NCBI RefSeq assembly: GCF_030013595.1
Contig: NZ_CP122768.1
Source: Escherichia coli
GTDB taxonomy: Bacteria > Pseudomonadota > Gammaproteobacteria > Enterobacterales > Enterobacteriaceae
DNA: 64,000 nucleotides
Reading direction: 5' to 3' (one strand)
Shown piece after piece: positions 420 to 17,320 of this stretch (positions within the stretch are counted from its first letter, which is position 1; each line of letters begins with the position of its first letter). Position numbers and translations under genes: made by a program. The notes below the pieces were generated by a model. It was not told the origin of the DNA and ran no database searches. It saw only the letters and a list, made by a program, of their open reading frames with translations.

Positions 420-503
420 TGATTCATCTTCATTGGCCTCGAATGCTTAGATTGTCTAAGTATCTGCCATTGTTGTATACTTAGCAATCCTAAGTTAATA
501 GCC

Positions 504-1076
504 TTGTTTTGTCATATGAATAGCCGAGTAACCAACCCTGAGTCGTACATATTTTCTGCAATCATCTTAATTGGCAAAGATAACTTCACCAGTAACGAAG
601 TAGCAAAAATTCTTATCGAGCGATTTTCACTTCCGAAAAATTATTTAAAGGCAAAAGCTTTTGCTTATAACCAAATTCAATCCCTGGTTAGAAAAGGATT
701 ATTAAACAAAGTAAGAAAAACAGGCGTGTATCAATATTTATACTCAGTCACAGCAGAATTCAATGTCGCAATAGAGTGCGTGAAATTAATTGAGGCAACC
801 CCAAAGTCTTCCTGTCAACTTGTTTCAAGTGCTACCAACCATGAACACAGAAATGTAAATATCCAAATAAAGTCTCTTATTGAAAAATACAGCAGTGAAT
901 TGGCGAAAGTATCAGGAGCAAAGGAGATTTATGAGGAATTGATAGTTGCTGTGCCGAGCAGGGAAAATGAATTCAGGAAGCTTTCTCTTGAACAAGAGAA
1001 AAAACACATCAAGATAAATGAAAAAATAAATACATTAATTGGAATTATTAATCAATCTCTTGCAGTAAGGCAATGA
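504..1076 (+). CDS. Hypothetical protein (190 aa), possible winged-helix DNA-binding N-terminus; divergent from the Xre gene
   Basis: ORF track; AT-rich codon usage; no recognisable catalytic motif. Alternative start at MNSRV (position 516). Confidence 0.5.
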   Translation: MFCHMNSRVTNPESYIFSAIILIGKDNFTSNEVAKILIERFSLPKNYLKAKAFAYNQIQSLVRKGLLNKVRKTGVYQYLYSVTAEFNVAIECVKLIEATPKSSCQLVSSATNHEHRNVNIQIKSLIEKYSSELAKVSGAKEIYEELIVAVPSRENEFRKLSLEQEKKHIKINEKINTLIGIINQSLAVRQ

Positions 1077-1110
1077 ATTTTAGCAAGTATTTGAAGCTAA
1101 ATGGAGTCAT

Positions 1111-1145
1111 GAAAAAGAGAGGGCAAAGCCGAACTCCGCCCTCTC
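1111..1145 (-). terminator. Candidate rho-independent terminator for minus-strand transcripts
   Basis: 8-bp stem GAGAGGGC/GCCCTCTC (1117-1124 / 1138-1145) with a 13-nt loop; on the minus strand it is followed by a U5 run (A-run 1112-1116 on plus). Loop is long, so weak. Confidence 0.3.
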
Positions 1146-1891
1146 CCGTCAAGCACTGATATATCTCATTAAAATGAGATTAACAGCGCGCACTCCTATA
1201 TGCTAGTCGTATATAAATATAATGTCAGCCAGTCCCGGATGCAACTCTTTAATGAAGTTCAGTACTCTCTTTTTTTAGTTATCGAAATGATAGTTGGTAC
1301 AAGGGAACACACGAAGAGGAAAATTGCGATGACTTTGACGCAGAGCATGTTGAGTCTATTATTGCGACCCTCGAAGCTCTGGATGCGTTAGATTTACGCC
1401 ACGGAAGATGGACTGTAAGTATCCCTCCAATAGTGCGACTCACTTACCCAGATTGTAAGTTCAAACGGTCGAAGGCACTAGATTCTGATAAGAATTTGAG
1501 GCGCATGAGTACAGGCATTCGATTGTCAGCTTCTGGGTAGTTGTGGGAATTCTGCTCAAAGTGCCGCTGGCCAAAACATATTGGGCGCTGGTCTGTGGCG
1601 GCAAAATGGTGTCACGTAAAAGATACAGATGTTCCAGTCTATTTTTGCCCAATAACGTGCCCCGGGTTCAGTTTTTTTGCTCGGGACTAAAACGCTTATC
1701 CAGATCAGCCGCCAGCTGTTCAATACTCTTCGTTGAGCCTTTATAAATATACCAATCAAACTGTTAAAAACTCGTTCAAATTCGACCAAATATTATTACT
1801 GGCTGATATTAGTTCGGTTAGGCAAAGCGCAACAAACAACTAAGAAGTGCGCCTCAAAAAATTAATTGTAAGGCGCCCCCCTAAAACACAT

Positions 1892-4219
1892 TTATTCTGT
1901 TATATTTCTTGGCAACATAGAAAAAGATGCTTGAGACAATCCTGCGCGCTTGAATTTATACCGTATATATGTTGACACTTCCATCTCATGGTTTGACAAC
2001 AAAATCTGACGATCTGAAAGCTCTACCCGTAACAAATCACTCAATGAAGCAATGTTAATCTCATCCATTGACTGTACTGGATCATCAATCAGTATAAATG
2101 GATTAAGCGCATATACCCTATTCAATGTTAGGAAAAATGCCAAACCTAATGATGCGATTTGCCCACTACTCATAGACAGGATTGCATCATGATCAGACTT
2201 CAGCGCAGTATTGAATTTGAGTATATCTCCTTTACCGCTCACTATAAACAAACCTAACCCACGCTGATAATTCTGTATGAGTCTTCCACTATATATATGG
2301 AATAACAGCTCTATATCACCAATAGTCTTTTTCGCATACTGTTTCGCAGTGTCGTCCAATTGCCGCCTAAGATTAACAATTTTTGCTTTTATTTTTTTGC
2401 CAGCTTCAATCCTAGAACTGAGCTTATCAAGCTCCGCTACTTTGGACTTGTACTCTTCGCTTTTGAATTTAGAATGAGCGGCTCTGAGATAGGATTCTTT
2501 ATTTTCAAAATCTGAAACACTAAGTGAGGTTATATCTGATGCGTTCAAGAAAGCCATCTCTAAGCTAGATGACCAGTCTAAAGGGAGCACATCCTTTTCT
2601 GGTTTTTTAGCTGTAGCAATAATCCCTTTTGCTTCATTAAACCGTAACAGCAGAGCTGCATCATCAGCCGTAAAACTAAGATCTTTTGATACGCCATAAT
2701 TTACCAACTGCAAAGCCACTTCACTTATGATTGAGAACTTAGATTCTGCTGCTGTGAGAGCCTTAAAAAGCACACTATCGAAATCTTTTGCAACTAGGTC
2801 ACGCTGCTGTGTGAATGCTGTTATCTGTAAATTTAGTAAGTCCTGTATTGACCTTACTGTCTCCTCCAACTTCTGGGCAGAAGCATCTATTTCAGATCGA
2901 ATTCTTTCCGCATTATTTACAGCGGCTTCCTCTAACGCAGCGTAAGTCGCCCATGATAACCCACAGAATGGACAACCGGAAATTTCCAAATCTTCACATT
3001 CTTGGTGTCGCCGCAGCAACTCTGCATGAGCATTTAGTAAATTTACAAGCTTTGCGTTCTTAGCTGCACTATCAGATTTAATTAGATCCCGTGCCTCAAT
3101 GAGACTATTTACACCAACCAAATCAGCAGCGTTCTTAAGACCGTTTAGGTCTACTTCATTTATCTCTGAAGCTGGCTTTCTGAATATCAAAAGATCATGA
3201 TCCAGCCCAACTAGCGTTGACTCCTTTACTTTCAGACCTTCATATCCAGCTACTTCAGAACCCAACTGAAGAGCCAACTTTATATCGACCTCTCTTTTTA
3301 AAAACGCATCAATATTACTATTAGCCTTTCTCGTCAGAACTTCATCAAAGTTCTGATATATTCTAAATATATTCCGTAATTCACGTATCAGAGTTTCAAT
3401 ATCTGTATCATTTACAGCCGATAGAGGCTGTTCAACATCCCAACCAGGTGACGGCGTCGCGGTACTTAACCGCTTGAAGTCAACGGAATTCTCGGCATCT
3501 TGAAACTGACCACTAAGCTGTTTAATTTTTTCATTCAACTCAGCCTGGAGGTCAGTATGCACTTTCCCCGTATAAGATTCCGTAATAATACTTTCTAACT
3601 CGGAGCAATATGATATCTGTCTCGTCAATTTATCGGTATTAATAAGATGCTCAATGCCTTTTTTTCTTTCAGTGGCATCCGTCGAGTACAGGTATCTATT
3701 CTGCCCTTGCTCAAGATAGTTCAATAAAGAGAAATTTTTTAAGAAGTTCTCTCCTAGAATACTCTCTAGTGCTTTAGAATCAAGACTCTCTCCAAACTTA
3801 TCGGAGTCTATACTGCTTATTTCGTAAAGCTTAAAAATAGAGAAGTTATCAGGTGCATTATTATCCGGGTTCGATAAATCCGCTATGGTAGCAACACGAG
3901 CTAGGAAAATTGACTCTCCTGAATCTTGATTTATGAGCTCAGCTCTAATAGCGATGTCGCCCTCTTTATTTCTATTCCAGTATATGTTTTCTTCAAATTG
4001 TTTTTTGCGCGAACGTTTTGCAACTGTTGCATCATTTGTATTGATAATTCTTTGTATAACGCCAGTAAACAAAAGCTCCAACGCATCAAATATGCTAGTT
4101 TTTCCAAAACCATTGGGGCCATCCAAGGTAATCATGGAGGCAGATCGAAAATCAATAGATGTATTTTCAAATGGCTTGAAATTTTCAATCTTGAGGCTGG
4201 ATATTTTCCATTTCTTCAT
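1892..4219 (-). CDS. SMC/Rad50-like ABC ATPase with coiled-coil and CxxC zinc-hook; candidate Lamassu LmuB-like (ABC-3C ATPase) component
   Basis: 775 aa. Walker A GPNGFGKTS (res 34-42), ABC signature MSSGQ, Walker B ILIDDP, H-loop LSNHE near the C-terminus; long central region with CPFC (res 416-419, nt 2963-2974) at about the midpoint. Start overlaps upstream gene stop by 35 nt. Confidence 0.85.
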   Translation of the reverse strand: MKKWKISSLKIENFKPFENTSIDFRSASMITLDGPNGFGKTSIFDALELLFTGVIQRIINTNDATVAKRSRKKQFEENIYWNRNKEGDIAIRAELINQDSGESIFLARVATIADLSNPDNNAPDNFSIFKLYEISSIDSDKFGESLDSKALESILGENFLKNFSLLNYLEQGQNRYLYSTDATERKKGIEHLINTDKLTRQISYCSELESIITESYTGKVHTDLQAELNEKIKQLSGQFQDAENSVDFKRLSTATPSPGWDVEQPLSAVNDTDIETLIRELRNIFRIYQNFDEVLTRKANSNIDAFLKREVDIKLALQLGSEVAGYEGLKVKESTLVGLDHDLLIFRKPASEINEVDLNGLKNAADLVGVNSLIEARDLIKSDSAAKNAKLVNLLNAHAELLRRHQECEDLEISGCPFCGLSWATYAALEEAAVNNAERIRSEIDASAQKLEETVRSIQDLLNLQITAFTQQRDLVAKDFDSVLFKALTAAESKFSIISEVALQLVNYGVSKDLSFTADDAALLLRFNEAKGIIATAKKPEKDVLPLDWSSSLEMAFLNASDITSLSVSDFENKESYLRAAHSKFKSEEYKSKVAELDKLSSRIEAGKKIKAKIVNLRRQLDDTAKQYAKKTIGDIELLFHIYSGRLIQNYQRGLGLFIVSGKGDILKFNTALKSDHDAILSMSSGQIASLGLAFFLTLNRVYALNPFILIDDPVQSMDEINIASLSDLLRVELSDRQILLSNHEMEVSTYIRYKFKRAGLSQASFSMLPRNITE

Positions 4220-4940
4220 GAATCAGAGTCTCGATTAGTTTGTCTGCTTCAATCCCAGATGCAGAAGCATTAAAGATTTTGAGATGAAGACCGGTCAATT
4301 TTTTCTCGGCGAGTGCTTCCTTTACATAAATATCAAGCGGCTTTAGTGAGCTTTCCTTAACAGGAACCTTTACAAATGGAAGCTTTATAAAAATTCTCGC
4401 CGCGACGCTATATAATGTAGGCGATAGTGGTTGATCTCGATATTCTGCAAACATCCTATCATCGACAACAATCGCTGAAACGCTTTCGAAGTTGTGCCCT
4501 TCTAACAACCTAAGCTCTTCCTCGCTGTAATAAAGAAAATATTTTTTAAAATAATATGGATTCTCTTCAATTCCAAACACCTTACTCTCAATTCCATTAA
4601 AATCAACTCGGTGCCTTAATTTATGCAAAATAATCAGATCGGTATTTTTATCGAAAGCAGGATCAGATTTGAATGTTTCAGGAGCATACAGTAACACTAA
4701 TTTATTCAGCACCTGCGGTGATGGTATATTTTCACACTCAACCACAGCGAGGAATCGCTTCCTATCTCCACTATCCTGACTAAAATAAGTCAAAGACTTA
4801 TAATCAACACCTTCAAGACCAGCTAAAGTTTCTCCTGCCGAATACTCTATGGTGACGTCATCTGCTTTAGAATAGTCGCCTGTATTAAACAAAGTAAACT
4901 CATGTTTCAAGGCAGCCTGTAGAACAATATCTTTAATCAT
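4185..4940 (-). CDS. Middle component (251 aa) of the three-gene ATPase operon; candidate LmuC/kleisin-like protein
   Basis: ORF track; overlaps the upstream gene by 8 nt and the downstream gene by 35 nt (translational coupling); AT-rich; no motif recognised by eye. Confidence 0.75.
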   Translation of the reverse strand: MIKDIVLQAALKHEFTLFNTGDYSKADDVTIEYSAGETLAGLEGVDYKSLTYFSQDSGDRKRFLAVVECENIPSPQVLNKLVLLYAPETFKSDPAFDKNTDLIILHKLRHRVDFNGIESKVFGIEENPYYFKKYFLYYSEEELRLLEGHNFESVSAIVVDDRMFAEYRDQPLSPTLYSVAARIFIKLPFVKVPVKESSLKPLDIYVKEALAEKKLTGLHLKIFNASASGIEADKLIETLIHEEMENIQPQD

Positions 4941-6195
4941 TCAACTTCACCCTCGCCTCTTCCTTTGAAATTATTTTTGCATCAAAGGCTTTAGTTATTT
5001 TGTTACGATCCTTACCCATCAATGAAAACTCATCTTCTACAGCATCCCGCGAAGCTCCGGTAGCTGCACAAAATCGCTCAGCGGGTGAAAAAATATTTGC
5101 TCTAGCTGCGATTAGCCATTGATATTCAACTAAGATATCTATCAGCTCTGGATCGCTTTTCAGCTGCTCTATTAGATCTTCAGCAAACCTATGCTCCCGT
5201 CGAGCATTGTCTGCCGAAATTGCTGTTGGCAAATAAAAATCTCCGGCAGAGCACCTATAGTAAGGAGGCTTTTGCTCACTCAGTGGCGCTTTATCTATAT
5301 CGTAGATCACATCCACATAATCATAAACACTGTTCTCACTCACGACCATTGTGGAAGATCCAAAACATAACGACTTCCACAACCATATAAATGGAGTATC
5401 ACCCAACTCTTTAATCTGATCGTAAACATTTGCAACTTTTTGAATAACAGTTCTATCTGCTGTTTTTTCCATTGTATTGGTATACCCATACAATGATTTA
5501 CAAACGGCCATCCTGGCTTGGAACATTTTGTATACAATGTCGTCTTCATGGGTAGCGGTGAGGCTTAATAACTCTACAATCTTCTCACTTTTTAAAGTTT
5601 GAGTAAACGCGGCTTGTGCGGCGCTCATTAACCCATCCTGATTGCACGCGTGTATATATATTACTTGAGCGGCAATATGACTCTGCAAAGCCTCGAACTT
5701 CAAATTCACTAAAAAATCACTGCAAGGTAACTCTTCGGAAACCAGGTACTTCTCAATTTTTGATTTCGTTTTTTCTTCAACATCTTGGAGATAGCAGTAA
5801 GGCAGTCCATCGTAAGTATAAAATTTAACGACATTCCCATTGCTGCCAACAAAATCAGAAGCATCATCAAGGCGCGCAGATGTATGAAAATATCTTTTGG
5901 TAGTCTTATCACACAACATATATGTAGATGCAGCTTTTTCGAGAGCCTCCCTATAGGCAGCTCTTTTATCATCTGCTAGCGCTTTTACCTGATGCGTAGA
6001 AACTGCAACTCCATTTTCAATTATCGAAAAATCATCAATGCTGTCGATTTGCAACTCAAACGACATTTTATTGAGCACACATTCTATGGAATGATAAAGC
6101 GCTAAATGCCCTTGATAAATAAACCCACTCCATGTAGGTGCAGCTGTATGAGGATGGGAGGAAGCCGATTTCGACATGCAATATGTCCTAGGCAA
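4933..6195 (-). CDS. Putative effector (420 aa) of the three-gene operon; candidate LmuA-like protein with possible N-terminal PD-(D/E)xK-type nuclease fold
   Basis: First gene of the minus-strand operon. N-terminal segment GFIYQGHLALYH...IDSIDDFSIIENGVAVSTHQVK contains a D...D...(E/Q)xK-like arrangement; assignment is by eye only. Alternative start at M7 (position 6177). Confidence 0.75.
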   Translation of the reverse strand: MPRTYCMSKSASSHPHTAAPTWSGFIYQGHLALYHSIECVLNKMSFELQIDSIDDFSIIENGVAVSTHQVKALADDKRAAYREALEKAASTYMLCDKTTKRYFHTSARLDDASDFVGSNGNVVKFYTYDGLPYCYLQDVEEKTKSKIEKYLVSEELPCSDFLVNLKFEALQSHIAAQVIYIHACNQDGLMSAAQAAFTQTLKSEKIVELLSLTATHEDDIVYKMFQARMAVCKSLYGYTNTMEKTADRTVIQKVANVYDQIKELGDTPFIWLWKSLCFGSSTMVVSENSVYDYVDVIYDIDKAPLSEQKPPYYRCSAGDFYLPTAISADNARREHRFAEDLIEQLKSDPELIDILVEYQWLIAARANIFSPAERFCAATGASRDAVEDEFSLMGKDRNKITKAFDAKIISKEEARVKLND

Positions 6196-6524
6196 ATTTA
6201 GAGACAGAGTCAGAAGTAACCTTCTAACTCAGTAGAATATGATCTTAATTTCTGTATCCGATGTTTATATTTTTTGTTGAACGCGCCCAGCGGCGTTATG
6301 AAAACTTCCTTGATTGTCATTTTTATGCATTCTCTTGATCGATAGGAATTTAAATCCCAAAAAGATTAAAAAAACACCCAAAAACGGATGTTTATTCGAC
6401 ACTGCCTGCGTGCCATGAGTGCACCGCCATCAATTAAATGGATCTTATCGAGTGATACTGTATATCACTGATGGTTTTTTACTCCATTCCCCTGAAAATG
6501 GACGCAACTTCCCCGATGCGGCTC

Positions 6525-7712
6525 TCAGCCGCACACCCGCTGTTGCGCCAGTGGCTCATGCATCAGGACCAGCTCTGTCAGACGGTAGCCCCGCTTCAGC
6601 CCCGTAAAACGCATCTGACATCCGCACAGGATGCACTTTAGCGGGTCAACCTTCAGTAACCGCTGATACATCCCTCTCCACCTGATTTGCATCGCCGTCT
6701 TTCTCACCGTCTCCGTTATGACGTACACAACATCTTCCAGTAACCGGCGCTTTACCGGACTCAGGAAACCGTAGTACCTCACCATACGGAACCCCTTATC
6801 CGCCACATGCCAGGAGAACCTTTCCATAAACTCATCACCACTCATCACCAGGTATTCTTCCCGTTTTGTCCGGTGACTGTTGTAACGCAGACCAATTTCA
6901 TCCTGACCAGCATAGTGCTCCAGACGGCTCATCGGCACCGGCGGTTTTTTCAGGTAAGAGCCGAAGTACACCGCCACATGTGTGGCGTTATCCATCACCC
7001 GGGATACGTTGACATTCCAGCCCCGCCGGTAATGACTGTCCAGGAAGCGATTCCAGTCCCGTCTGCTGCTTCCTTCAACTGCCAGCGCATCCGGTATCAC
7101 CAGCTCCGGGTATTTTCGTGACAGTAACCACGTTATCCTGTAACGCCACATGCTCATCACCTTACGGGCGTAAAAATGAAGGTTTTTCCAGGTGTGGTCT
7201 GGTGTCACGCCGCCGGCCGTTGTCGACAGGTGAATGTGCGGATGCCACTGCTGGTCACGTCCCCATGTGTGGATGACCGTGAATATCCCCGGCACCACAT
7301 CTGCCTGGCGGCAGATTTCCTGTATCACATCCGCAGCAATGCGGCTCATCTCTGCCAGTAACCACCGGTTGTGGAACACCAGGGACCAGTACTGGCAGGG
7401 AAGTGTGAACACAATATGCTGCCACGGACAGTCGGGAACCAGACTCAGCAGATACTGTATCCACTGTGCGCCAGCCTTCACTCCGCAGTGCGGGCAGGAG
7501 CGACTTTTACACCGGAAGCAGACCTTTTTTGTGTGGCAACAGTCCGGAGATGAACAGCACCACTGTGTGTACCCCATCAGCGTGGTTCCGCACGCCATGA
7601 TTTTTGTCACCGACTCAATGACTACCGGACGCACTGAACCTTCCGGTTGTTTCTCCAGCCAGTTAAGCCAGCGGTTTCCCTGCTGAAAAATGTCGGCAAA
7701 ACGGGGAAGCAT
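6525..7712 (-). CDS. tnpA: IS91-family transposase TnpA
   Basis: N-terminal Cys-rich zinc-binding region (CCSSPDCCH...CFRCKSRSCPHCG), HUH motif HPHIH, conserved Tyr-containing C-terminal region. Likely start at MLPRF (7712), sharing one nucleotide with the orf121 stop; ORF track extends to 7757. Confidence 0.85.
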   Translation of the reverse strand: MLPRFADIFQQGNRWLNWLEKQPEGSVRPVVIESVTKIMACGTTLMGYTQWCCSSPDCCHTKKVCFRCKSRSCPHCGVKAGAQWIQYLLSLVPDCPWQHIVFTLPCQYWSLVFHNRWLLAEMSRIAADVIQEICRQADVVPGIFTVIHTWGRDQQWHPHIHLSTTAGGVTPDHTWKNLHFYARKVMSMWRYRITWLLSRKYPELVIPDALAVEGSSRRDWNRFLDSHYRRGWNVNVSRVMDNATHVAVYFGSYLKKPPVPMSRLEHYAGQDEIGLRYNSHRTKREEYLVMSGDEFMERFSWHVADKGFRMVRYYGFLSPVKRRLLEDVVYVITETVRKTAMQIRWRGMYQRLLKVDPLKCILCGCQMRFTGLKRGYRLTELVLMHEPLAQQRVCG

Positions 7713-8077
7713 CAGAAGGGCGGGGGGACTCCGTCCGGCCAGTGAACCGTGCCACACTCCGGGCAGTACATGCCGCCGGCGCTGATACCGGCAAGAATGG
7801 TCGCAAACTCCCGCTCCGTGCAGCGGGCTATTTCAGGATACCCTTCGTCATCGACACGAACAAACCAGAAGACCAGCTTTTTGTTTCCGGCATCCACAAA
7901 GAAGGGAATATTCAGGTCTGCGCAGCACTCAACGGCATCGTCAAAATTATCAAAGCGCAGAGCTTCTGCGTCTTCTTCGTCAAAGAAGTCATCGTCGTGA
8001 AGCTTCACGACATAGCGGGGAAGTTTGCTTCTTTGAGGGGCAGGTTTTCGTTTACGGGGTTTAGCTGAACGGGACAT
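7712..8077 (-). CDS. IS91 accessory ORF (ORF121-like, 121 aa)
   Basis: 121-aa ORF immediately upstream of and overlapping tnpA, as in IS91. Confidence 0.65.
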   Translation of the reverse strand: MSRSAKPRKRKPAPQRSKLPRYVVKLHDDDFFDEEDAEALRFDNFDDAVECCADLNIPFFVDAGNKKLVFWFVRVDDEGYPEIARCTEREFATILAGISAGGMYCPECGTVHWPDGVPPPF

Positions 8078-8964
8078 ATAACTACCTGAAAGACAATGAT
8101 ATTGTCTGTTTTTATAACGGTAATTTCAGGCCATGACAAGCCGCAGCCGCCAAGCTGCCTACTCGAGCGATATCGCTATGATATCACCGAATGTAACATA
8201 CCTGTAGGGTCAAAAAAAGGGTCAGCCAAACATTCTGGAGTGTTCGGTATCGTTGGTACCATTCATGCAAAATGGACTTAAATCTTAAGAAAGACACTCC
8301 ATTAGCTTAAGCTTCCCTACCTTACCCTACCAATACACCTAGCCAGCCGTGAGAACGCTACCGCCATCAGAGGCATTAGTCCCGATTAAGTATCGATGCA
8401 ACCAAATGTTACCAAAATTCATGAATTGTTCAAGAAGGCAATCAGATAATCCCTAAAGCTTTATGGGCCTGGTTATGCGATTACATTGGGAAATGGTTCA
8501 TGAACAGAAGTAGAGCAAGCTGCCAAGAAATGCTCATAAGAGGCGAATTTCCTGTTAGTTCATGAAGCCACCTGGAAGTGAATTCATCTTTCTATTAAAA
8601 ATATTCATTTAAAGCAAAGAGATATGTCATCTGTGGTTTATGAACTGGATTCTCGCTCAACATAAGTTAAATGTGGTGGGTTTGTTCTTAAGTTCATGTG
8701 TTCCGCTCTTTCAGTAGCTTAACTGATGAATCAGTCAGCAGCTCTTGCCGTGCAAGCTACGCGGCGGTTCGTACCAGATTGGCCACCTCCATCTCCTGGT
8801 TCGCTTTCCCCTCCCCCCGGTAAACCTCACCCAACGTTAATTAATGATGTCAGTATGTGGGCGCTATCCTTGTATGTAAAATCCACTGACGATTATGCCC
8901 ATCTGTGAAAAAAACTCACAATGCCATTCGATGCATCTCCATACTGAACGAGGCGTTATCGTCT

Positions 8965-9864
8965 TTATCGCCCCGTAGTGGATATCAGAAAATCAATCAG
9001 GGCCTTCACTCTTTTCGTTTTACCCGCGTTTTTGGGGTAATAGAGATACACTGGCGGGTAGGTTTTCCAGTAGCTCTCCATCACCGGAATAAAGCGCTCC
9101 CTGTCCGGCTGTAACTGCCAGACAGGCTCAAACAAGCGCCCAATTCCCAGCCCGTTACGGATCCCGTCTGCCATAACGTCAATATCGTTGCTGATTAACT
9201 GCCCCGGCATCTCAACGGTCAACTGCTCACCGCGATCGTTCAGGAGCAGCGGAAGGATGCGGTTGTTGGTGATAAAACGGTAACCAATCAGCTGGTGATG
9301 ACAGAGATCTGCCGGCACTTCAGGCGTTCCATGTCGGGAGAGATACGCTGAGGATGCATATAATCCTTCACGAAACGGTTTCATTAACGGTCGGGCCACC
9401 ACCCCTCCCTCAAGAATATCGCCAAAACGGATCCCCAGATCAAAACGCTCTTTGATGATATTCACGGTACCGTCGTAGACCGAAATTTCTAACTGTATAC
9501 CCGGATATTGCTGACAGAATTCTGCCATCGCAGGCTTAAGAATTAACAGGTAGGCAAAACGCGAGAGCGTAATTCGCACCATCCCAGAGGGCTCCTGATG
9601 CTGGTCGCGAATGCTTTCAAGCGAGTTTTCCAGCGACTCCACCGCCGCAGCGGTCTGTTCCAGCAATAATTGACCGGTTTCCGTCAGCTCTATACGGCGG
9701 GTCGTACGCACAAAAAGCGGATGGCCGATATACTCTTCCAGCAGCTTTAGTGCATTGCTGACGGAGGGAGGCGTAATTTCCAGTTTCCTTGCGGCTGCCG
9801 AAATATTGCCCTCCCGCGCAATGCTCTGGAAGATGCGAATCTGGTTATAAAGAGCGTTATTCAT
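8965..9864 (-). CDS. LysR-family transcriptional regulator
   Basis: 299 aa; N-terminal HTH (ISAAARKLEITPPSVSNALKLLEE) and LysR substrate-binding domain; divergent from the downstream oxidoreductase operon. Confidence 0.9.
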   Translation of the reverse strand: MNNALYNQIRIFQSIAREGNISAAARKLEITPPSVSNALKLLEEYIGHPLFVRTTRRIELTETGQLLLEQTAAAVESLENSLESIRDQHQEPSGMVRITLSRFAYLLILKPAMAEFCQQYPGIQLEISVYDGTVNIIKERFDLGIRFGDILEGGVVARPLMKPFREGLYASSAYLSRHGTPEVPADLCHHQLIGYRFITNNRILPLLLNDRGEQLTVEMPGQLISNDIDVMADGIRNGLGIGRLFEPVWQLQPDRERFIPVMESYWKTYPPVYLYYPKNAGKTKRVKALIDFLISTTGR

Positions 9865-10000
9865 AATGTTTTCCTAAAGCAATTCTCGCCTGATTATTAA
9901 GTACAGTCTAAAAATGCTTAAGTCAATGACCCTCTAATCTTCCTGAAATACGCCTCTTATACTTTAGTCTCTTTCTACTACGACCTGAGTTCAGGAGACT

Positions 10001-10312
10001 ATGATGCGAATTTTATGTCTGGATATCCCTGCCCCTGGAGCATCGCTGGAGAAATATGCTCCGCACCTCAACGCTGAAGCGCTGCACGCCTGGGGATTGT
10101 ATAAATCAGGCTTCATCCGCGACATCTACTTCCGTCAGGACAGACCTGGCGTCGCTATTTTTCTTGAATGTGACTCTGTCGATGAAGCGATGAACGTTAT
10201 GGCCGAATTCCCGTTGGCAAAAGCAGGCTTACTAAGCTTCGAGTGTATACCGCTTGGCTCCTTTATTAACTGGGAAAATCTCTTCGCCGATGAATTTAAA
10301 AATAAAGAGTGA
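10001..10312 (+). CDS. Small alpha+beta-barrel protein (YciI/muconolactone isomerase/Dabb-like), 103 aa
   Basis: ORF track; size and operon position; product assignment is tentative. Stop overlaps the next gene start (ATGA-type). Confidence 0.55.
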   Translation: MMRILCLDIPAPGASLEKYAPHLNAEALHAWGLYKSGFIRDIYFRQDRPGVAIFLECDSVDEAMNVMAEFPLAKAGLLSFECIPLGSFINWENLFADEFKNKE

Positions 10313-11010
10313 GGACCGATATGAAACCTGCATATAAACCAGTGCTATGTGTCGTTTCCAGCCATCCGATTAAAGGCGCATCCGGTGTACCAACCGGTTT
10401 TTTCCTGGCCGAGCTGACTCATCCGCTGAAAGTACTGGAAGATGCCGGAATAAAAACAACAATAGCCAGTATTCGCGGGGGGCAGCCACCGGTGGATGGA
10501 TTTGACCTCAGCGACCCTGTTAACGCCTGGTACTGGAACGAAACCGATTTTCAGCAGCGCCTGGCAACAACACCTGCGTTATCCGAGCTGAAAGGTGCCG
10601 ATTACAGCGCAGTTTTCTTTGCAGGTGGTCATGGGACCATGTGGGATTTCCGTGATAATCAGGATGCCCAGCGTATTATCCGCGAAGTGTATGAAAGTGA
10701 TGGGATTGTCTCAGCCGTCTGCCACGGGCCTGCGGCATTGGTTGACGCAAAACTCAGTAGCGGCGAATACCTGATAAAAGGGAAAAATGTGGCGGCCTTT
10801 ACCAACAAGGAAGAGGAAGAAGTTCACACAACAGATGTGGTTCCCTTCCTGCTTGAAACCGCACTTCGCGAGCATGGTGCGCTTTATCATGAAGCTCCAA
10901 ACTGGTCTGAAAACGTGGTTACCGACGATCGCCTTATCACGGGGCAGAATCCCGCTTCAGCACATGGGGTTGGTGTGGCGCTGTTAAATGCACTCCGCCG
11001 GACAGCTTAA
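10309..11010 (+). CDS. DJ-1/PfpI (ThiJ) family type-1 glutamine amidotransferase-like protein
   Basis: 233 aa; nucleophile-elbow-like AVCHGPAAL motif typical of DJ-1/PfpI proteins. Confidence 0.75.
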   Translation: MRTDMKPAYKPVLCVVSSHPIKGASGVPTGFFLAELTHPLKVLEDAGIKTTIASIRGGQPPVDGFDLSDPVNAWYWNETDFQQRLATTPALSELKGADYSAVFFAGGHGTMWDFRDNQDAQRIIREVYESDGIVSAVCHGPAALVDAKLSSGEYLIKGKNVAAFTNKEEEEVHTTDVVPFLLETALREHGALYHEAPNWSENVVTDDRLITGQNPASAHGVGVALLNALRRTA

Positions 11011-11083
11011 TTAATTCATCGTTACTCACCTTACTTGGCCGGTTTAAGTCAGCCACGATCCGGCCTTTTTTCAGGAGCTGAAT

Positions 11084-12031
11084 ATGAAAACACTACCTCC
11101 AGTCGCACTAGGTACATGGTCCTGGAGCACAGGCTTTGCCGGCGGCGACACCGTCTTTGGTAATCATCTTTCTGATACTCAGATGGCAGAAGTGTTCACT
11201 GCGGCCATGAGTAAGGGCCTCAATCTCTGGGATACCGCAGCAGTATATGGTATGGGGAGTTCCGAGACTGTGCTGGGAGCATTAGTCCGTCAGTTTCCCC
11301 GCGAGAACATAATTTTATCCACCAAATTCACGCCGCAGATTGCGGACAAGCAGTCTGCGCAGCCTGTCAGCGATATGCTTGAGGCCAGCCTTGGGCGCCT
11401 GGGCGTGGACGCGATTGATATCTACTGGATCCATAATCCCCTCGACGTCGAAAAATGGACGCCAGGACTGATCCCACTTTTACAAAGCGGTAAGGTAAAA
11501 CGCGTAGGTGTTTCCAACCACAATCTGGCACAAATCAGACGCGCCAATGAAATCCTTAACGCTTCCGGTTATTCCCTCAGTGCAGTACAAAATCACTACA
11601 GCCTGCTCTATCGCGCTTCTGAAGAGGCCGGGATCCTTGATTATTGCCGACAAAATAACATCACGTTCTTTGCTTACATGGTCCTGGAGCAAGGCGCGCT
11701 CAGTGGTCGTTATGATTCAAATCATCCCATGCCTGCCGGGAGTGGCCGGGCCGAAAGTTATAACGCCGTACTGCCGCAGATAGAAAGACTAACCGCCGCC
11801 ATGAAAAAAATGGGAGCCGAAAGGAATGCCAGCGTGGCACAGATAGCCATCGCATGGGCTATTGCGAAAGGTACCCTTCCCCTCGTTGGTGCGACTAAAG
11901 TCCATCACGTTCTGGACGCCGCCTGCGCTTCAGACATCCAGTTACGCGATGAGGAAATCATCCTGCTGGAACAACTCGCCGCAGAGACCAGAGTGGATAC
12001 ACGAGGCGCCTGGGAAAAACCGATGGTGTAA
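11084..12031 (+). CDS. Aldo/keto reductase family oxidoreductase
   Basis: 315 aa; AKR-like sequence (LWDTAAVYGMGSSE..., ...GVSNHNLAQI...). Confidence 0.85.
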   Translation: MKTLPPVALGTWSWSTGFAGGDTVFGNHLSDTQMAEVFTAAMSKGLNLWDTAAVYGMGSSETVLGALVRQFPRENIILSTKFTPQIADKQSAQPVSDMLEASLGRLGVDAIDIYWIHNPLDVEKWTPGLIPLLQSGKVKRVGVSNHNLAQIRRANEILNASGYSLSAVQNHYSLLYRASEEAGILDYCRQNNITFFAYMVLEQGALSGRYDSNHPMPAGSGRAESYNAVLPQIERLTAAMKKMGAERNASVAQIAIAWAIAKGTLPLVGATKVHHVLDAACASDIQLRDEEIILLEQLAAETRVDTRGAWEKPMV

Positions 12032-12133
12032 AGCCCGTCCGGAACAGACTGTCATGAATGACACACACGAACGGGCTGTTCCGGGTGATTCTAATCTGTA
12101 TCACTTTTACTGCTTTGTATGAATGGTGAGAAT

Positions 12134-12812
12134 ATGAAAATCATTTGCCTCGAAGAAAATTATCTCGACAGCGAGTTAGGGCGAGCGTGTATGCCTGTTG
12201 CGCTTGAGCAGGCACCTTTCCTTGGCGACTGGGGGAAAACCGTCGCTGATGGTCATAATCCTGACCGACTCCCTGCTTTCCCGCTTTAATAAACTGAATG
12301 TGCCACTCTATCTTCATCCCGGGTTACCGCTTAAAAGCGTACAGCAGGCCTACTTCACGGGCTTCAGCGCAGAGGTCAACGCCAGGCTTTCTATGTTTGC
12401 CTGGGGCTGGCATCACGAAGCGGGGATCCATTTGTTGCGGCTGATGTTATCGGGTGCATTTGATAAATATCCCCACTTGCAGGTAATCAGTGGCCACTGG
12501 GGGGAGATGTTACCCTTCTGGCTCCAGCGTCTTGATGACAGCCTACCACTGGCTGCAACGGGTCTGTCACGCACGCTAACGAGAACCTTCCAGCAACACG
12601 TTTACGTTACCCCGTCAGGTATGCTGACACTGCCGCACTTCAAGTTTATCTACGCGTTAATGGGGGCTGAAAGGATCCTGTTCTCCGTCGATTATCCCTA
12701 TCAGACCCCTGGACGGTGTAAAAACCTTTATAGACAGTCTGCCCGTCAACAAGGCTGAAAAAGAGGCCATCGCGTTTCGCAATGCAGAACGTTTACTGGG
12801 CATCACGGTTTA
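12134..12812 (+). pseudogene. Disrupted amidohydrolase-2 family gene (frameshifted/truncated)
   Basis: Three consecutive frames carry pieces: MKIICLEENY... (12134-), the 186-aa ORF 12198-12758 (…ISGHWGEMLPFWLQRLDD…FSVDYPYQ…) and a C-terminal tail …KEAIAFRNAERLLGITV ending ~12812. No single intact ORF. Confidence 0.55.
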
Positions 12813-12963
12813 GTTCACCGTTTCATGATGACTGAGCACATTGTGATCAGCCGACAATTATTAGTTTTTGCCTAAAAGTGAATGAGCCTTTACTGCTCTA
12901 AAAAAATAATGTTGTCACTCTATACTGGATTTAATATTCACCAAAGATGTTTAACTGATTGAA

Positions 12964-13536
12964 ATGAAAAATATCCTTGTTATTTCAGGTCATCCTGAGC
13001 TTACCCATTCCGTCGCCAATGCCACTATTCTTGATGAAGTGGAGACCGCCCTTCCCGATGTTGAGATTCGTCGTCTGGACAGGCTCTATCCGGATGGCAA
13101 ATTCAACATCGCGGCGGAGCAGAAAAGCCTGCTCAGGGCCGATGTGATTGTCTGGCAGTTCCCTTTTTCCTGGTATGGGCTGCCAGGATTAATGAAAAAA
13201 TGGCTGGACGAGGTCTTTGTTCACGGCTTCGCGCATGGCTCAACGGCGAAACTGGGCGGTAAAAAGCTGATCCTCTCCTTTACAACGGGAGCGCCAGAGG
13301 AGCTCTATACCGTCGACAGTTTCTTTGGCCATACCATTGAAGAGTATCTTATTCCGTTCGAAACCACGGCAAGGCTGTGCAATCTTGAGCTGCTGGCGCC
13401 GGTTTATACCTGCGGTATCAGCTATGCCGACCGGGATGCCGACAAAATCGCGCAGCAAAAAACGCTTGCCCGGGAACACGCTTCAAGGCTTGTCGAACTG
13501 CTCAATTCCGTCGTGAATAATCCAGAGGGAGAATAA
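12964..13536 (+). CDS. Flavodoxin-like NAD(P)H dehydrogenase (quinone) family protein
   Basis: 190 aa; MKNILVISGHPE... N-terminus and size typical of NAD(P)H:quinone oxidoreductase / KefF-like proteins. Confidence 0.75.
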   Translation: MKNILVISGHPELTHSVANATILDEVETALPDVEIRRLDRLYPDGKFNIAAEQKSLLRADVIVWQFPFSWYGLPGLMKKWLDEVFVHGFAHGSTAKLGGKKLILSFTTGAPEELYTVDSFFGHTIEEYLIPFETTARLCNLELLAPVYTCGISYADRDADKIAQQKTLAREHASRLVELLNSVVNNPEGE

Positions 13537-13538
13537 CA

Positions 13539-14558
13539 ATGCAGTATACCCGGCTCGGTAAAAGTGACTTACTTGTTTCCCGCATCTGCATGGGATGCAT
13601 GGGGTTTGGCGATCCGTCGACGGGTCAGCATAGCTGGACGCTGGACGAAACAGCAAGCCGCGACATCATTCGCTATGGCCTTGAAAAGGGCATCAACTTT
13701 TACGATACCGCTATAGCCTACCAGAATGGCTCCAGTGAGCGATACGTTGGCCGGGCATTACGGGAGATGGCGAAACGCGATGATATCGTCCTGGCCACCA
13801 AGTTTCTGCCGCGAACCCCCGCACAAATTGCCGGAGGGATCAGCGGAAAAGAGGCAATCGCTCAATCCCTTGACCAGAGCCTGAAGAATCTGGGGATGGA
13901 CTATATCGACCTCTACATCTACCACATCTGGGATTACAACACGCCCATTATCGACGTGCTTGAAGCGTTACATACCGCTGTTACTGCTGGCAAAGTACGA
14001 GCTGTTGGTATTTCAAACTGCTATGCCTGGCAGCTGGCGAAGGCGAACGCCCTTGCTGAACGCGAAGGGCTGACGCCCTTTGTTTCCGTACAGAGCCACT
14101 ACAATCTAATTATGCGCGAAGATGAACGGGAGCTCTTCGGCCTGTGCACTGAGGATAATATCGCAATGACCCCCTATAGCGCGCTGGCCAGCGGCCGCCT
14201 CTCTCGTAAAGAAGGCTATACACGGCGAGCCACAGAGGATGACTATGCGCGTGGAAAATATGACAGCACGGCTGAACAGGATCGCAACATTATTGAGCGT
14301 GTAGCCGAACTGGCCGAACGTCATCTGGTGTCAATGACGGAAATATCTCTCGCTTGGCTGCTGACAAAAGTCACATCACCTGTCGTAGGGGCTACAAAAA
14401 AAGCTCATGTCGATGGCGCGGTAAACGCAGTAAATCTTCAACTAAGTCCGGAGGAAATTCAGTTTCTGGAAGAAACCTACCAGCCGCATGTTCTGACGGG
14501 GATCATGGCGCAAAATACGCCGCAAACGAAAGATGTTAAGCAGGTCTGGATGCGATAG
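13539..14558 (+). CDS. Aldo/keto reductase family oxidoreductase (Tas/YajO-like)
   Basis: 339 aa; AKR hallmarks (…INFYDTAIAYQNGSSE…, …GISNCYAWQ…). Confidence 0.85.
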   Translation: MQYTRLGKSDLLVSRICMGCMGFGDPSTGQHSWTLDETASRDIIRYGLEKGINFYDTAIAYQNGSSERYVGRALREMAKRDDIVLATKFLPRTPAQIAGGISGKEAIAQSLDQSLKNLGMDYIDLYIYHIWDYNTPIIDVLEALHTAVTAGKVRAVGISNCYAWQLAKANALAEREGLTPFVSVQSHYNLIMREDERELFGLCTEDNIAMTPYSALASGRLSRKEGYTRRATEDDYARGKYDSTAEQDRNIIERVAELAERHLVSMTEISLAWLLTKVTSPVVGATKKAHVDGAVNAVNLQLSPEEIQFLEETYQPHVLTGIMAQNTPQTKDVKQVWMR

Positions 14559-14673
14559 CCCTTATTCACTTTTCCTCCTCTCGTCTTTGAGAGCGCCAGT
14601 AGCGGTCGGTTACGTTCTTACCAGCACCAGTTGATCGAACGTCTTAAACAGTAATGTCAGTAAAAAGATCATC

Positions 14674-15399
14674 GTGAAAAAGACTTTTATGCTTTTAATT
14701 TGCATGCTAATAAGCAGCCCTGTCTTTGCAACAAAACCGGACGCGCCGAATAAGCCGGAGATGAATATCTTCGAGCTCGGCATCAGACCCGATCGGGACA
14801 ACGACTTTGCAGACGTGGCCAGACAGACGATTTCCGCTTCGGTTGATCATGAAGCTGGTACACTGGCGATGTATGCCCTGAAACGCAGCGACAATTCAGG
14901 TCAGGCATTCATGTTCGAACTCTATGAAAATGAGCGTGCTTATCGCAAACATCTCAATGCCGCCCCATACAAAGCATTCGCTGCTCGTGCACCTGACATT
15001 ATTGACAGGAAGAAGAAAATTACCCTGGAGCCACAGTTTCTGGGCGACAAACACATCATACCGAATGAACGAACTATCAATAATCTGGTGATCGTCGAAG
15101 TAAAGCCTGAATTTCAGAGCGAATTTAGAAACATCGTCCTTCCTGAAATGGTCGAGTCGCTCAAAGTAGAGAAAGGCGTGTTAGCCATGTATGCCGGTAC
15201 AGATTCAGAGACTCCAAAACGATGGTATTTCTATGAGATTTACGCCAGTGAGGAGGATTATCAACTGCACCGACAAACGCTGCACTTCCTGGATTACCTC
15301 AGGCAAACGGCGCATATGAGCGCCAGGAAGGACGCAATCCCGGTAAAACCGGTATTTCTTCGTAACAAAGGCGGAATCAAACAGGAGCCGCAACGTTGA
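14674..15399 (+). CDS. Secreted tandem ABM (antibiotic-biosynthesis-monooxygenase-like) domain protein
   Basis: 241 aa; N-terminal signal-peptide-like MKKTFMLLICMLISSPVFA; two repeats of similar length, each with an ...AMYAL/AMYAG...YE.Y...Y..H pattern. Confidence 0.65.
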   Translation: MKKTFMLLICMLISSPVFATKPDAPNKPEMNIFELGIRPDRDNDFADVARQTISASVDHEAGTLAMYALKRSDNSGQAFMFELYENERAYRKHLNAAPYKAFAARAPDIIDRKKKITLEPQFLGDKHIIPNERTINNLVIVEVKPEFQSEFRNIVLPEMVESLKVEKGVLAMYAGTDSETPKRWYFYEIYASEEDYQLHRQTLHFLDYLRQTAHMSARKDAIPVKPVFLRNKGGIKQEPQR

Positions 15400-15414
15400 C
15401 CAGTAAGGATTAAC

Positions 15415-16218
15415 ATGAAAAGCGTACTTGCAGCAGCGGCTATGTCGCTTGTTATTTCTGATTTTGCCAATGCTGAGGAAACAAGAGGTAAAGCTATGAT
15501 GAAAATAGAACCGTCAGCGATTTCGGAAGCTGATATTCGTTCCGTCTCACCGGCTCTCGCGCGCTTTGGTCGCGAAGCTATTACTGAAGATCTGTGGACA
15601 CGCGACGCCCTCTCACCGAGGGATCGTAGTGTGGTGACCGTCGCCATGCTGATTGCCCGCAACCAGCCTGCCGAGCTTAAGCACTATATTGACGTCGCTC
15701 TCGATAGCGGCGTGACGCCAGCGGAATTATCAGAAATCATTACCCATCTGGCGTTCTACTCAGGTTGGCCAAATGCAATGTCAGCCGTCAGCGTGACCAA
15801 AGCAGTATTTGAAACTCGTGGCGTCACGGCAGATGCACTTCCTGAAGCTTCTCCGGACCTGCTTCCTCTCAATCAGGAAGCAGAAAAGCAGCGTTCAGAG
15901 ACAGTGGAAAAAAATGTTGGCCCAATATCTCCAGGCCTGGTTAAATTCACTGCTGATCCACTCTTCCTGGATCTCTGGCAAAGACCCGCGCTGAAACCCC
16001 GCGACAGAAGCCTGATTACGGTCAGCGCCTTAATCGCATCCGGACAGAGCGCGCAGATTGGCTATCACCTCAATAGAGCAATGGATAATGGACTTTCTGT
16101 TGAGGAAGCTGGTGAGATCGTTACCCAGGCCGCCTTCTATGCTGGCTGGCCAAACGCATTTACCGCTGCTCCGGTTGTGGGAGAGGTGCTAAACAATCGA
16201 TCATCGAGTAAAAGGTAA
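15415..16218 (+). CDS. Tandem carboxymuconolactone-decarboxylase (CMD) family protein, possibly exported
   Basis: 267 aa; two repeats each with ...LW.R.ALSPRDRS..TVA.LIA... and ...HL.RA.D.G...E..E...H.AFY.GWPNA... motifs; hydrophobic N-terminus. Confidence 0.7.
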   Translation: MKSVLAAAAMSLVISDFANAEETRGKAMMKIEPSAISEADIRSVSPALARFGREAITEDLWTRDALSPRDRSVVTVAMLIARNQPAELKHYIDVALDSGVTPAELSEIITHLAFYSGWPNAMSAVSVTKAVFETRGVTADALPEASPDLLPLNQEAEKQRSETVEKNVGPISPGLVKFTADPLFLDLWQRPALKPRDRSLITVSALIASGQSAQIGYHLNRAMDNGLSVEEAGEIVTQAAFYAGWPNAFTAAPVVGEVLNNRSSSKR

Positions 16219-16632
16219 CATTACTGAACACTAAAACCTGACGCACATCACAAAATTAGAACGATCAGTTCATGAACCAACAGACGTGACATCGAGTGAT
16301 TTATGGACAGCGTTTAACACAGTTATGAACCAAAACTGAGTTCATAACTGTGAGTTTGAATCGTCATTTGATTAATATCCATTTAAAACAGTTTGTTATG
16401 CTGTTTCTGGTGCTGAAGTCAATTATGTATATCCCTCAAACCCAGAATAGTTAAATGGAATTTGAGTGATGCGAAGCGATTTTACGGTCGTCGTTATTAC
16501 TTCAGGGTTCCAGAACATAAAGCCTCTCCTCTTTCATGATTGGCCTGTGCATACCGGATATAGGCTGGCTGGTATGCAGGTTTGCCGTTTGCCGCATCTT
16601 CCCTGCGTTGAAGAGTCAGGCTGGCAAACCGC

Positions 16633-16887
16633 GTGCAAATGAACACCCCCTCTTTCCATCAACACTTCAGACAGCTTGCGGGAATGAGTCCACTCCGGTA
16701 TCAGAAATGGCTACGCCTCAATGAAGCCAGGCGACTGATGCTGAATGAACATTACGATGTCACCACTGCAGCCTATGCTGTCGGTTACGAAAGCTTATCC
16801 CATTTCAGTCGGGAATATTCGCGGATGTTTGGAGAGTCACCTAAGAGAGATATTGCCAGGTTAAGAAAGTCTGTCGGTCAGCTTTAA
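16633..16887 (+). pseudogene. yneL: AraC-family regulator remnant (C-terminal HTH only), yneL-like
   Basis: 84-aa ORF carrying only an AraC C-terminal HTH (…FHQHFRQLAGMSPLRYQKWLRLNEARRLML…LSHFSREYSRMFGESP…); no N-terminal domain upstream. Matches the position of the K-12 yneL remnant next to the yde fimbrial genes. Confidence 0.6.
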
Positions 16888-17320
16888 TAAACCCTGCACT
16901 TATCTGTTTAAAGCAATTCCGTGTTAGTTACACCAGGCAAACATTAACTATGGCTAATGATTTATAGCCATATAAACCATTGGTCGCTCTTGACCTTTCC
17001 TGACACTTCCCTTGTTCGCAATAATATTCTGTTTAGTCGCTGTTTATAAATAACATGCATAATGAAATCGTAATGTTATTTAGCGACATAAAATGTCTTT
17101 GCAAATACTCTCTACAACAAGTGCTGCAATAAACTTGTTGTGATTAGGTGTCCTTGTAATTTAAAGATATTATCGTTCTTCGTGAAATGTAATAACCCTG
17201 GAAACTATATTCTCAGGGCAATATCCCATCAAGAATGATTCTTGTTTTATAAGCAATAACAGAATGACTTAATTGTTAACTTTCTTTATTCAGCTACTTA
17301 AATATAAATTTTGGAGAATT

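Follow-up and report, generated by a model that had tools for sequence, protein, structure and literature searches.

We analyzed a 64,000-nucleotide stretch of Escherichia coli DNA (RefSeq assembly GCF_030013595.1, contig NZ_CP122768.1), called the window here, and concentrated on a gene cluster at positions 8965 to 16218. The open reading frame (ORF) listing and Pfam searches place in this interval a divergently transcribed LysR-family regulator gene, eight intact genes in all when the regulator is counted, and one dead Amidohydro_2 gene. A sequence-only reading of the same DNA had listed genes for a LysR regulator, a DJ-1/PfpI protein, two aldo-keto reductases (AKRs), a flavodoxin-like (Flavodoxin_2) reductase, an ABM protein, and a CMD protein, all of which we recovered where they had been placed. 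That list left out the first gene on the plus strand, which encodes a 103-aa protein (10001-10312), and was silent on the N-terminal signal peptides of the ABM and CMD proteins. The features of the cluster are as follows.

8965-9864, minus strand: LysR-family transcriptional regulator, 299 aa (Pfam HTH_1, 6.9e-22; LysR_substrate, 2e-26)
9893-9915, plus strand: putative P1 operator (ATTATTA-N9-TAAAAAT), whose imperfect dyad has T-N11-A at its core; the LysR start codon is 29 nt away
9932-9941 and 9958-9963, plus strand: putative P1 promoter core, made up of the CTCTAATCTT block and the TATACT −10 hexamer, conserved across genera
10001-10312, plus strand: 103-aa protein, first gene of the operon, in no Pfam family; predicted muconolactone isomerase (MIase)/YCII-like fold
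10309 or 10321 to 11010, plus strand: DJ-1/PfpI protein (Pfam, 3.5e-16)
11084-12031, plus strand: aldo-keto reductase 1 (AKR1), 315 aa (Pfam, 6e-57)
12134-12813, plus strand: Amidohydro_2 pseudogene, defined by alignment to the intact Enterobacter mori gene
12857-12879, 12896-12901, and 12921-12926, plus strand: putative P2, with the operator ATTATTA-N9-TAAAAGT, a CTCTAA block, and TATACT as the −10 hexamer, all in the register seen in P1
12964-13536, plus strand: Flavodoxin_2 protein, predicted NAD(P)H-dependent (quinone) oxidoreductase, 190 aa (Pfam, 4.7e-40)
13539-14558, plus strand: aldo-keto reductase 2 (AKR2), 339 aa (Pfam, 3e-70)
14674-15399, plus strand: tandem-ABM protein, 241 aa from GTG 14674 (Pfam, 1.7e-25, two ABM stretches)
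15415-16218, plus strand: tandem-CMD (PcaC-like) protein, 267 aa (Pfam, 4.5e-37, two CMD stretches)

The stop codon of the 103-aa gene overlaps the DJ-1 start at GTG 10309 or sits at most 8 nt from the alternative start at ATG 10321. Gaps of 2 nt separate the Flavodoxin_2 and AKR2 genes and 15 nt the ABM and CMD genes, and the tight spacing within these three pairs indicates translational coupling or cotranscription. Several of the other intergenic gaps measure 73 to 150 bp, among them 115 bp ahead of the ABM-CMD pair and 150 bp ahead of the Flavodoxin_2 gene. The antisense ORFs embedded in the cluster genes are of the usual embedded kind and are unsupported, and an Rfam scan of positions 8000 to 17500 at gathering thresholds found no RNA family. 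A search of the available literature library with combined gene names, RefSeq accessions of the proteins, and names of the flanking genes returned no paper on the cluster.

The regulator has the architecture of a LysR-type transcriptional regulator (LTTR), with an N-terminal HTH_1 domain and a C-terminal substrate-binding domain in Pfam. Its best NCBIfam match, YafC, reached 163 bits against a cutoff of 470, and the ratio of nonsynonymous to synonymous substitution rates (dN/dS) of its gene is 0.058 relative to E. mori. In the intergenic region between LysR and the operon lies the sequence ATTATTAAGTACAGTCTAAAAAT (9893-9915); counted from this box, the CTCTAATCTT block stands at offset 39, possibly as the activation site near −35, and TATACT at offset 65. 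A second box, ATTATTAGTTTTTGCCTAAAAGT (12857-12879), occupies the 150-bp gap ahead of the flavodoxin-like gene and is followed by CTCTAA at offset 39, as in P1, and by TATACT at offset 64. When both strands of the 64 kb were scanned, the pattern ATTATTA-N8-CTAAA matched twice, both times in the plus orientation, with 0.01 matches expected; the pattern was built from the same two sites that it counts, and its support therefore rests on the comparison with other genera.

That comparison was consistent across a wide range of loci. The Dickeya locus has exactly two operator matches at orthologous positions, and the E. mori locus has these as well as a third one next to LysR. The loci of two Pantoea species, two Serratia species, and Rahnella likewise have two sites each and no more, and Rouxiella has both sites together with one unrelated match elsewhere in its locus. 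In these last six Enterobacterales, the P1-type site lies 111 to 112 nt ahead of the small gene and the P2-type site 107 to 109 nt ahead of the Flavodoxin_2 gene. Dickeya, E. mori, and the Pasteurellaceae Rodentibacter, Aggregatibacter, and Ursidibacter have the P2-type site 107 to 111 nt ahead of Flavodoxin_2, and Klebsiella pneumoniae keeps the P1-type box between LysR and a shorter operon. The intergenic sequence between the conserved blocks has diverged across these genera. This phylogenetic footprint lends good support to the prediction that P1 and P2 are two LTTR-dependent promoters under common control and that the cluster probably forms at least two transcription units. The sequence-only reading had proposed that LysR controls the whole run of genes, and this proposal gains from the operator at the divergent promoter and from its second copy upstream of Flavodoxin_2, in the same register and conserved across genera; the genes are probably divided between at least two units, but their regulation appears to be related, so that the separate and unrelatedly regulated units that would have counted against the proposal are not what we found.

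Besides the circular count, two results weigh against common control. A scan for consensus sigma-70 promoters and terminators over positions 8700 to 16700 gave matches no commoner than in shuffled sequences and called neither P1 nor P2, a miss that the weak −35 elements expected of activator-dependent promoters would explain. Furthermore, no operator box was found upstream of the ABM-CMD pair, in the 115-bp gap there; these two genes are probably transcribed by read-through from P2, or else from a promoter of their own.

The gaps of 73 to 150 bp between several genes, the lack of a shared promoter in the consensus scan, and a gene content that varies by taxon (with an extra DUF1330 gene and a second Flavodoxin_2 gene in E. 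mori and Dickeya) would all fit small oxidoreductase genes that are unrelated, regulated independently, and neighbors only by chance, with LysR controlling at most its immediate neighbor. We consider this extremely unlikely, and it was disfavored already: the gene order is the same in Dickeya at 57 to 85% protein identity, the same operator recurs at two positions and in the same register in at least nine genera, and a triad of cluster genes, described below, co-occurs in 32 of 38 species.

Classical LTTR-operon pairs with a T-N11-A site near −65 include CatR/catBCA, BenM, CbnR, and AaeR. The cluster resembles such pairs in its HTH_1 and LysR_substrate domains, its divergent arrangement, a T-N11-A dyad about 65 nt ahead of the −10 element, and a poor −35 element, as well as in a box that overlaps the regulator's own upstream region, as autoregulation would lead one to expect. 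It differs from them in that two separate promoters within one cluster bear the box in the same register, and its LysR protein is not orthologous to any named LTTR.

Between AKR1 and P2 lies the amidohydrolase-2 gene, which had been read as frameshifted. The gene is indeed dead, but not through a simple frameshift: its lesions are an internal 356-bp deletion and one extra C. Relative to the intact E. mori gene, the missing segment has its junction at 12266/12267 and spans codons ∼45 to 163 (∼119 codons), and the loss is out of frame (356 = 3 × 118 + 2). The extra C, in the run at 12706-12709, was seen in this window only among the alleles compared. In addition, His9 has changed to Asn, so that a metal ligand is lost and the conserved N-terminal E-E-H reads E-E-N. 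A sensitive blastn search with the deleted 356-bp segment found no match in any of 5,426 complete E. coli genomes, which indicates that the deletion is fixed among carriers. The secondary lesions differ in other E. coli alleles, of which three have a 2-bp deletion, one has a 26-bp insertion, and one has none; the pattern reads as neutral decay that followed one founding deletion. Among the codons that survive, dN/dS relative to E. mori is 0.105, suggesting that most of the divergence is older than the inactivation.

The intact E. mori protein matches PDB entry 3nur at 7e-73 and LigW, gamma-resorcylate decarboxylase, and 2,3-dihydroxybenzoate decarboxylase at 1e-47 to 5e-41, a range that extends to 1e-30 when salicylate decarboxylase is included. 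Residues E7, E8, H9, H180, and D305 are invariant in 30 orthologs. A complete TIM barrel with its metal ligands (N-terminal E-x-H, His, and Asp) is present in the E. mori ortholog and missing from the window copy. Judged by these matches, the intact amidohydrolase falls among the LigW/gamma-resorcylate-like, non-oxidative decarboxylases of hydroxyarylic acids. It is like the decarboxylases of 5-carboxyvanillate (LigW), gamma-resorcylate, 2,3-dihydroxybenzoate, and salicylate in sequence and in the invariant EEH...H...D pattern, from which the E. coli copy departs by its ∼119 missing codons, its frameshift, and the His9-to-Asn change. The intact orthologs fall outside any NCBIfam model, and 3nur is itself uncharacterized.

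To place the gene among its relatives, we scanned one genome per species with the amidohydrolase profile and obtained 80 loci. Amidohydrolases at least 56% identical occur in 38 species, and in 32 of these the small protein and the DJ-1 protein are both encoded within 6 kb, usually directly upstream and on the same strand, with a LysR gene near most of them. Among the ∼40 more distant homologs, the small protein accompanies none and DJ-1 two. The 32 or more species with the triad, usually next to an LTTR gene, belong to the Gamma-, Beta-, and Alphaproteobacteria, and many live in association with plants or animals. In Pseudomonas kilonensis, the unit consists of LysR and the small protein, DJ-1, and amidohydrolase genes alone, amid unrelated flanking genes. 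Around this core, the surroundings vary and include AKRs, Flavodoxin_2 or FMN reductases, alcohol dehydrogenases, ABM, CMD, cupin, and DUF1330 proteins. Synteny of the cluster is conserved in Dickeya, Paraburkholderia, and Xanthomonas. The occurrence of the triad in 32 of the 38 species marks the amidohydrolase as a core gene rather than a passenger, and it is a core member that E. coli has lost. The suggestion that a pathway has partly decayed here is therefore upheld, both by the place of the amidohydrolase in the triad of relatives and by the absence of the deleted segment from every complete E. coli genome.

The K. pneumoniae chromosomal cluster (locus positions 2456 to 6271) consists of LysR followed by the small protein (3521-3829), Flavodoxin_2, AKR, and CMD genes, with no DJ-1, amidohydrolase, or ABM gene, which shows that the modules recombine. 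On the E. mori plasmid (locus positions 6928 to 8899), LysR and the operon are separated by an insertion that carries an ORF for an OYE-type alkene reductase (348 aa; absent from the PLSDB gene table) and a gene for an HxlR-type regulator. A copy of the operator lies on either side of this insertion, and the two copies differ at several bases.

The cluster is present in 516 of the 5,426 complete E. coli genomes (∼10%), as a chromosomal region that is 99.0 to 99.5% identical. In strain SC418, it lies between hipBA with an ISNCY remnant on one side and a yneL-like AraC remnant, a ydeQRS-type fimbrial operon, and ydeP on the other. Most E. coli strains lack the island, and in these the backbone homology restarts at ∼16450, ∼16678, or ∼16910; three different restart points suggest repeated deletions at a hot spot. 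The same cluster occurs on E. mori plasmids with the amidohydrolase intact and at 91% nucleotide identity, and in Rahnella rivi, a member of a different family, the cluster proteins are 86 to 98% identical. Comparative genomics had been proposed as a way to find intact versions, and it located them on the E. mori plasmids and in Rahnella, Pantoea, Serratia, and Dickeya. Taken together, these findings identify the cluster as a horizontally acquired, mobile accessory island at a variable chromosomal hot spot.

The loss of a core gene raises the question of whether the E. coli island is a decaying, functionally irrelevant remnant that has been drifting away since the decarboxylase was deleted. 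Beyond the deletion fixed in every carrier and the further independent indels in the pseudogene, such a remnant would account for the ∼17% of carriers with truncated islands (428 of the 516 cover at least 80% of it) and for the few island-less strains in which a 93-bp 3′ remnant of the CMD gene lies alone beside the yneL remnant (positions 5005 to 5097 in one such locus). Polymorphism in two genes points the same way and weighs against a maintained function: across five E. coli alleles, and thus in small numbers, Flavodoxin_2 shows eight amino acid-changing to six silent codons and AKR2 eight to two, which could reflect relaxed constraint after the loss of the decarboxylase. Against drift, each of the eight other ORFs has kept its full length, both here and in the four further E. 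coli alleles that we examined, and the small protein and the DJ-1 protein do not vary among these five. The pooled polymorphic codons, 33 changing and 41 silent, fall well under the neutral expectation of ∼3:1. All eight intact genes have dN/dS values of 0.016 to 0.23 relative to E. mori, and both operators and both −10 boxes are intact in the window. In Klebsiella, moreover, a chromosomal version that lacks both DJ-1 and the amidohydrolase is maintained, which means that the reductase/CMD part can exist by itself. On balance we find the remnant explanation unlikely, and the surviving genes are better described as apparently retained with some erosion than as subject to wholesale decay.

The 103-aa protein has no significant sequence match in Pfam, NCBIfam, or the PDB and belongs to a family of about 715 representative clusters at 50% identity. 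Weak matches to MIase and YCII, below the Pfam threshold, were seen in 38 and 42 of 57 relatives, respectively; the window protein itself reaches YCII at an E value of 0.25, also below threshold. Its AlphaFold2 model has a pLDDT of 95.3, and Foldseek returned ClcF, TftG, HI0828, and MIase as the best matches, with TM scores of about 0.7. A near-invariant Glu of the family aligns, within a weak profile alignment (E value of 0.67), with Glu27 of ClcF, the residue mutated in PDB entry 3zo7. The gene has a dN/dS of 0.016 relative to E. mori. On the strength of the model, we describe the product as a putative muconolactone-isomerase/YCII-like ferredoxin-fold protein, similar to MIase, ClcF, and TftG (YCII) in its predicted fold and, by the weak alignment, in the Glu, but at only 15 to 20% sequence identity and in a family of its own. 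In NCBI and UniRef, this 102/103-aa protein is named superoxide dismutase ("Superoxide dismutase, iron" in UniRef) in E. coli, Klebsiella, Enterobacter, and Leclercia; the cluster of database entries to which it belongs includes CAR12974.1 of E. coli UMN026. No superoxide dismutase family (Fe/Mn, Cu/Zn, or Ni) was found for it in Pfam or NCBIfam, and the fold is wrong for one; the label is probably a propagated misannotation.

For the DJ-1 protein, whose start is either GTG 10309, overlapping the upstream stop codon, or ATG 10321 as in RefSeq, the PDB relatives are 4p5p, 1u9c, yeast Hsp31, and Candida Glx3. Its AVCHGP elbow and a Glu align with C138, H139, and E170 of yeast Hsp31, which we take as the numbering of the catalytic triad. 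By this alignment, the protein falls in the yeast-Hsp31/glyoxalase III class, sharing the DJ-1_PfpI domain and the Cys-His-Glu positions with yeast Hsp31 (YDR533c), Candida Glx3, and HchA. Orthology to HchA was rejected on score (66.6 bits against an NCBIfam cutoff of 365). In contrast to HchA and Hsp31, the cluster protein has the small MIase/YCII-like protein as a constant partner, joined by the decarboxylase in species other than E. coli.

Both AKRs carry the Aldo_ket_red domain and the motifs of the catalytic tetrad (Asp-Tyr-Lys-His), read in translation as DTAxxYG, TK, and NHY in AKR1 and as DTAxAYQ, TK, and SHY in AKR2. They scored 118 and 125 bits against the nearest NCBIfam model, YdjG, whose cutoff is 550. 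The Flavodoxin_2 protein has GSP14, KefF, NQO1, and MdaB as PDB relatives. Identification as KefF was rejected (149.4 bits against a cutoff of 210, and no kefC in the cluster), leaving the general family only.

The ABM and CMD proteins are each a tandem duplication, and their closest structures are unannotated structural-genomics entries; the CMD protein matches PDB entry 4g9q at 2e-73. Both have predicted signal peptides, in the ABM protein a Sec signal peptide (MKKTFMLLICMLISSPVFA|TK), and their N-terminal segments (basic, hydrophobic, and AxA-type) are conserved in E. mori, Dickeya, and Xanthomonas. Starting at GTG 14674, the ABM protein has a canonical signal peptide that is conserved in E. 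mori and Dickeya; the RefSeq start (∼14704) removes the basic N region and half of the hydrophobic core, so that export requires the GTG start. Both proteins are probably exported to the periplasm. The CMD protein contains no Cys and hence no CxxC motif, and AhpD-type peroxidase chemistry was rejected for it; identification as PcaC was rejected as well (115.3 bits against a cutoff of 155.7), and the protein can be assigned only to the CMD domain family.

Some sequences of these two genes have a distribution of their own. The 3′ end of the CMD gene (16100-16300) is unusually polymorphic in E. coli, at 92 to 100% identity and with 23 silent polymorphic codons in five alleles. An ABM fragment (14695-15107) is found on Klebsiella plasmids at 91% identity, and a CMD fragment (15844-16277) on E. 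coli plasmids of 60 to 74 kb at 94% identity, in both cases with the rest of the cluster missing.

An MIase/ClcF-like fold with the catalytic Glu aligned, a CMD protein whose best NCBIfam models are PcaC and PcaDC, an amidohydrolase that resembles LigW and the gamma-resorcylate and 2,3-dihydroxybenzoate decarboxylases when intact, and a monooxygenase-like protein could together be taken for a present or former aromatic catabolic pathway, a variant of the beta-ketoadipate route. The scores for PcaC and MIase, however, lie under the curated cutoffs, and the ORFs of the cluster and related loci include no ring-cleavage dioxygenase, cycloisomerase, enol-lactonase, coenzyme A-transferase, thiolase, or transporter. 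The signal peptides of the CMD and ABM proteins are ill suited to a cytoplasmic pathway, and the companion genes encode reductases typical of detoxification. With the ring-cleavage and downstream enzymes missing and two proteins predicted to be exported, we rejected a catabolic pathway as very unlikely.

With moderate confidence, we favor the explanation that the cluster is a detoxification regulon with two promoters, activated by an LTTR and directed against phenolic-acid, quinone, or reactive-carbonyl stress; that it arrived by horizontal transfer; and that in E. coli it no longer has its substrate-specific decarboxylase. The gene content, lesions, distribution, synteny, operator conservation, and purifying selection are observed; LysR binding, cotranscription, export, the substrate class, and the physiological role are predicted from protein families, synteny, and sequence conservation. 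LysR would probably bind the ATTATTA-N9-TAAAWAT box with its T-N11-A core, ∼65 nt upstream of two near-identical activator-type promoters. From P1, it would drive expression of the small MIase/YCII-like protein, the Hsp31-class DJ-1 protein, AKR1, and formerly the LigW/gamma-resorcylate-type decarboxylase; from P2, that of the KefF/MdaB-like NAD(P)H quinone reductase and AKR2 and, probably, of the exported tandem-ABM and tandem-CMD proteins. Most likely, the set would be induced to detoxify a phenolic acid, or else the quinone and reactive-carbonyl species that arise from it, with the work divided between the cytoplasm (reduction and glyoxalase-type chemistry) and the periplasm. The 356-bp deletion would have destroyed the decarboxylase in the form of the cluster that reached E. 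coli, leaving a general quinone- and carbonyl-reducing set whose substrate-specific first step is gone.

What speaks against this regulon, on the side of function, is that no cluster protein attains an NCBIfam equivalog cutoff, which makes every enzyme activity a family-level guess; the proposed inducers (quinones, aldehydes, and aromatic electrophiles) likewise rest on annotation at the family level. Compared with known quinone and electrophile regulons (MdaB, KefF, WrbA, YgiN, and NemA in E. coli and MhqR/YodB in Bacillus subtilis), the cluster shares a Flavodoxin_2 quinone reductase-like enzyme, a YgiN-like ABM protein, and AKRs under one regulator, to which the E. mori locus adds the OYE alkene reductase and the HxlR regulator. 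It differs in having an LTTR rather than a MarR, DUF24, or TetR regulator, in the predicted export of its ABM and CMD proteins, and in the added MIase/YCII-like and decarboxylase genes.

The cluster is probably an LTTR-controlled stress or detoxification operon, uncharacterized but of a fairly ordinary kind, and no established concept is challenged. The sequence-only reading had described it for the most part correctly. Modestly new are the dual operator, the conserved triad, the apparently exported ABM/CMD pair, and the misannotated small protein. If the regulon is real, a regulator, an operator sequence, and two promoters can be assigned to an unstudied island of about one-tenth of E. coli genomes and of many plant- and host-associated Proteobacteria, and the island would offer a clean example of a core pathway gene that was lost while the accessory reductases were retained. 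The analysis also flags the widely spread naming of a ferredoxin-fold protein as a superoxide dismutase.

More tentatively, the small MIase/YCII-like protein, DJ-1, and the LigW-like decarboxylase may constitute an undescribed three-enzyme module that acts on a single hydroxy-aromatic or heteroaromatic acid, with the small protein as an isomerase- or lyase-type enzyme. The E. coli cluster would then be a natural decarboxylase-null form, whose other enzymes have been kept or repurposed for general quinone and carbonyl defense. The substrate of the triad could be identified with a simple enzyme panel.

The flanks of the island contain GTTCATGAAC-like palindromes on both sides, at 8494-8508, 8552-8566, and 8638-8659 on the left and at 16265-16283 and 16318-16352 on the right. 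The last of these includes a perfect 13-bp hairpin (16318-16330/16340-16352) directly 3′ of the CMD gene. These palindromes may represent a terminator, sites for a regulator, or what is left of a mobile element; the right-hand copies also occur in the sequence of island-less strains. Further to the right, positions 16633 to 16887 encode an 84-aa C-terminal HTH_18/AraC fragment, yneL-like, upstream of a fimA-type fimbrial operon that starts at 17273. To the left, positions 1 to 8077 have a low GC content of 39%, and coverage of this flank does not exceed 80% in any complete E. coli genome. It includes an IS91-family transposase-like ORF (6525-7757) followed by a 121-aa ORF (7712-8077). Matching genomes annotate AAA ATPase and "ABC-three component system" proteins in this region, and these genes are a candidate defense system.

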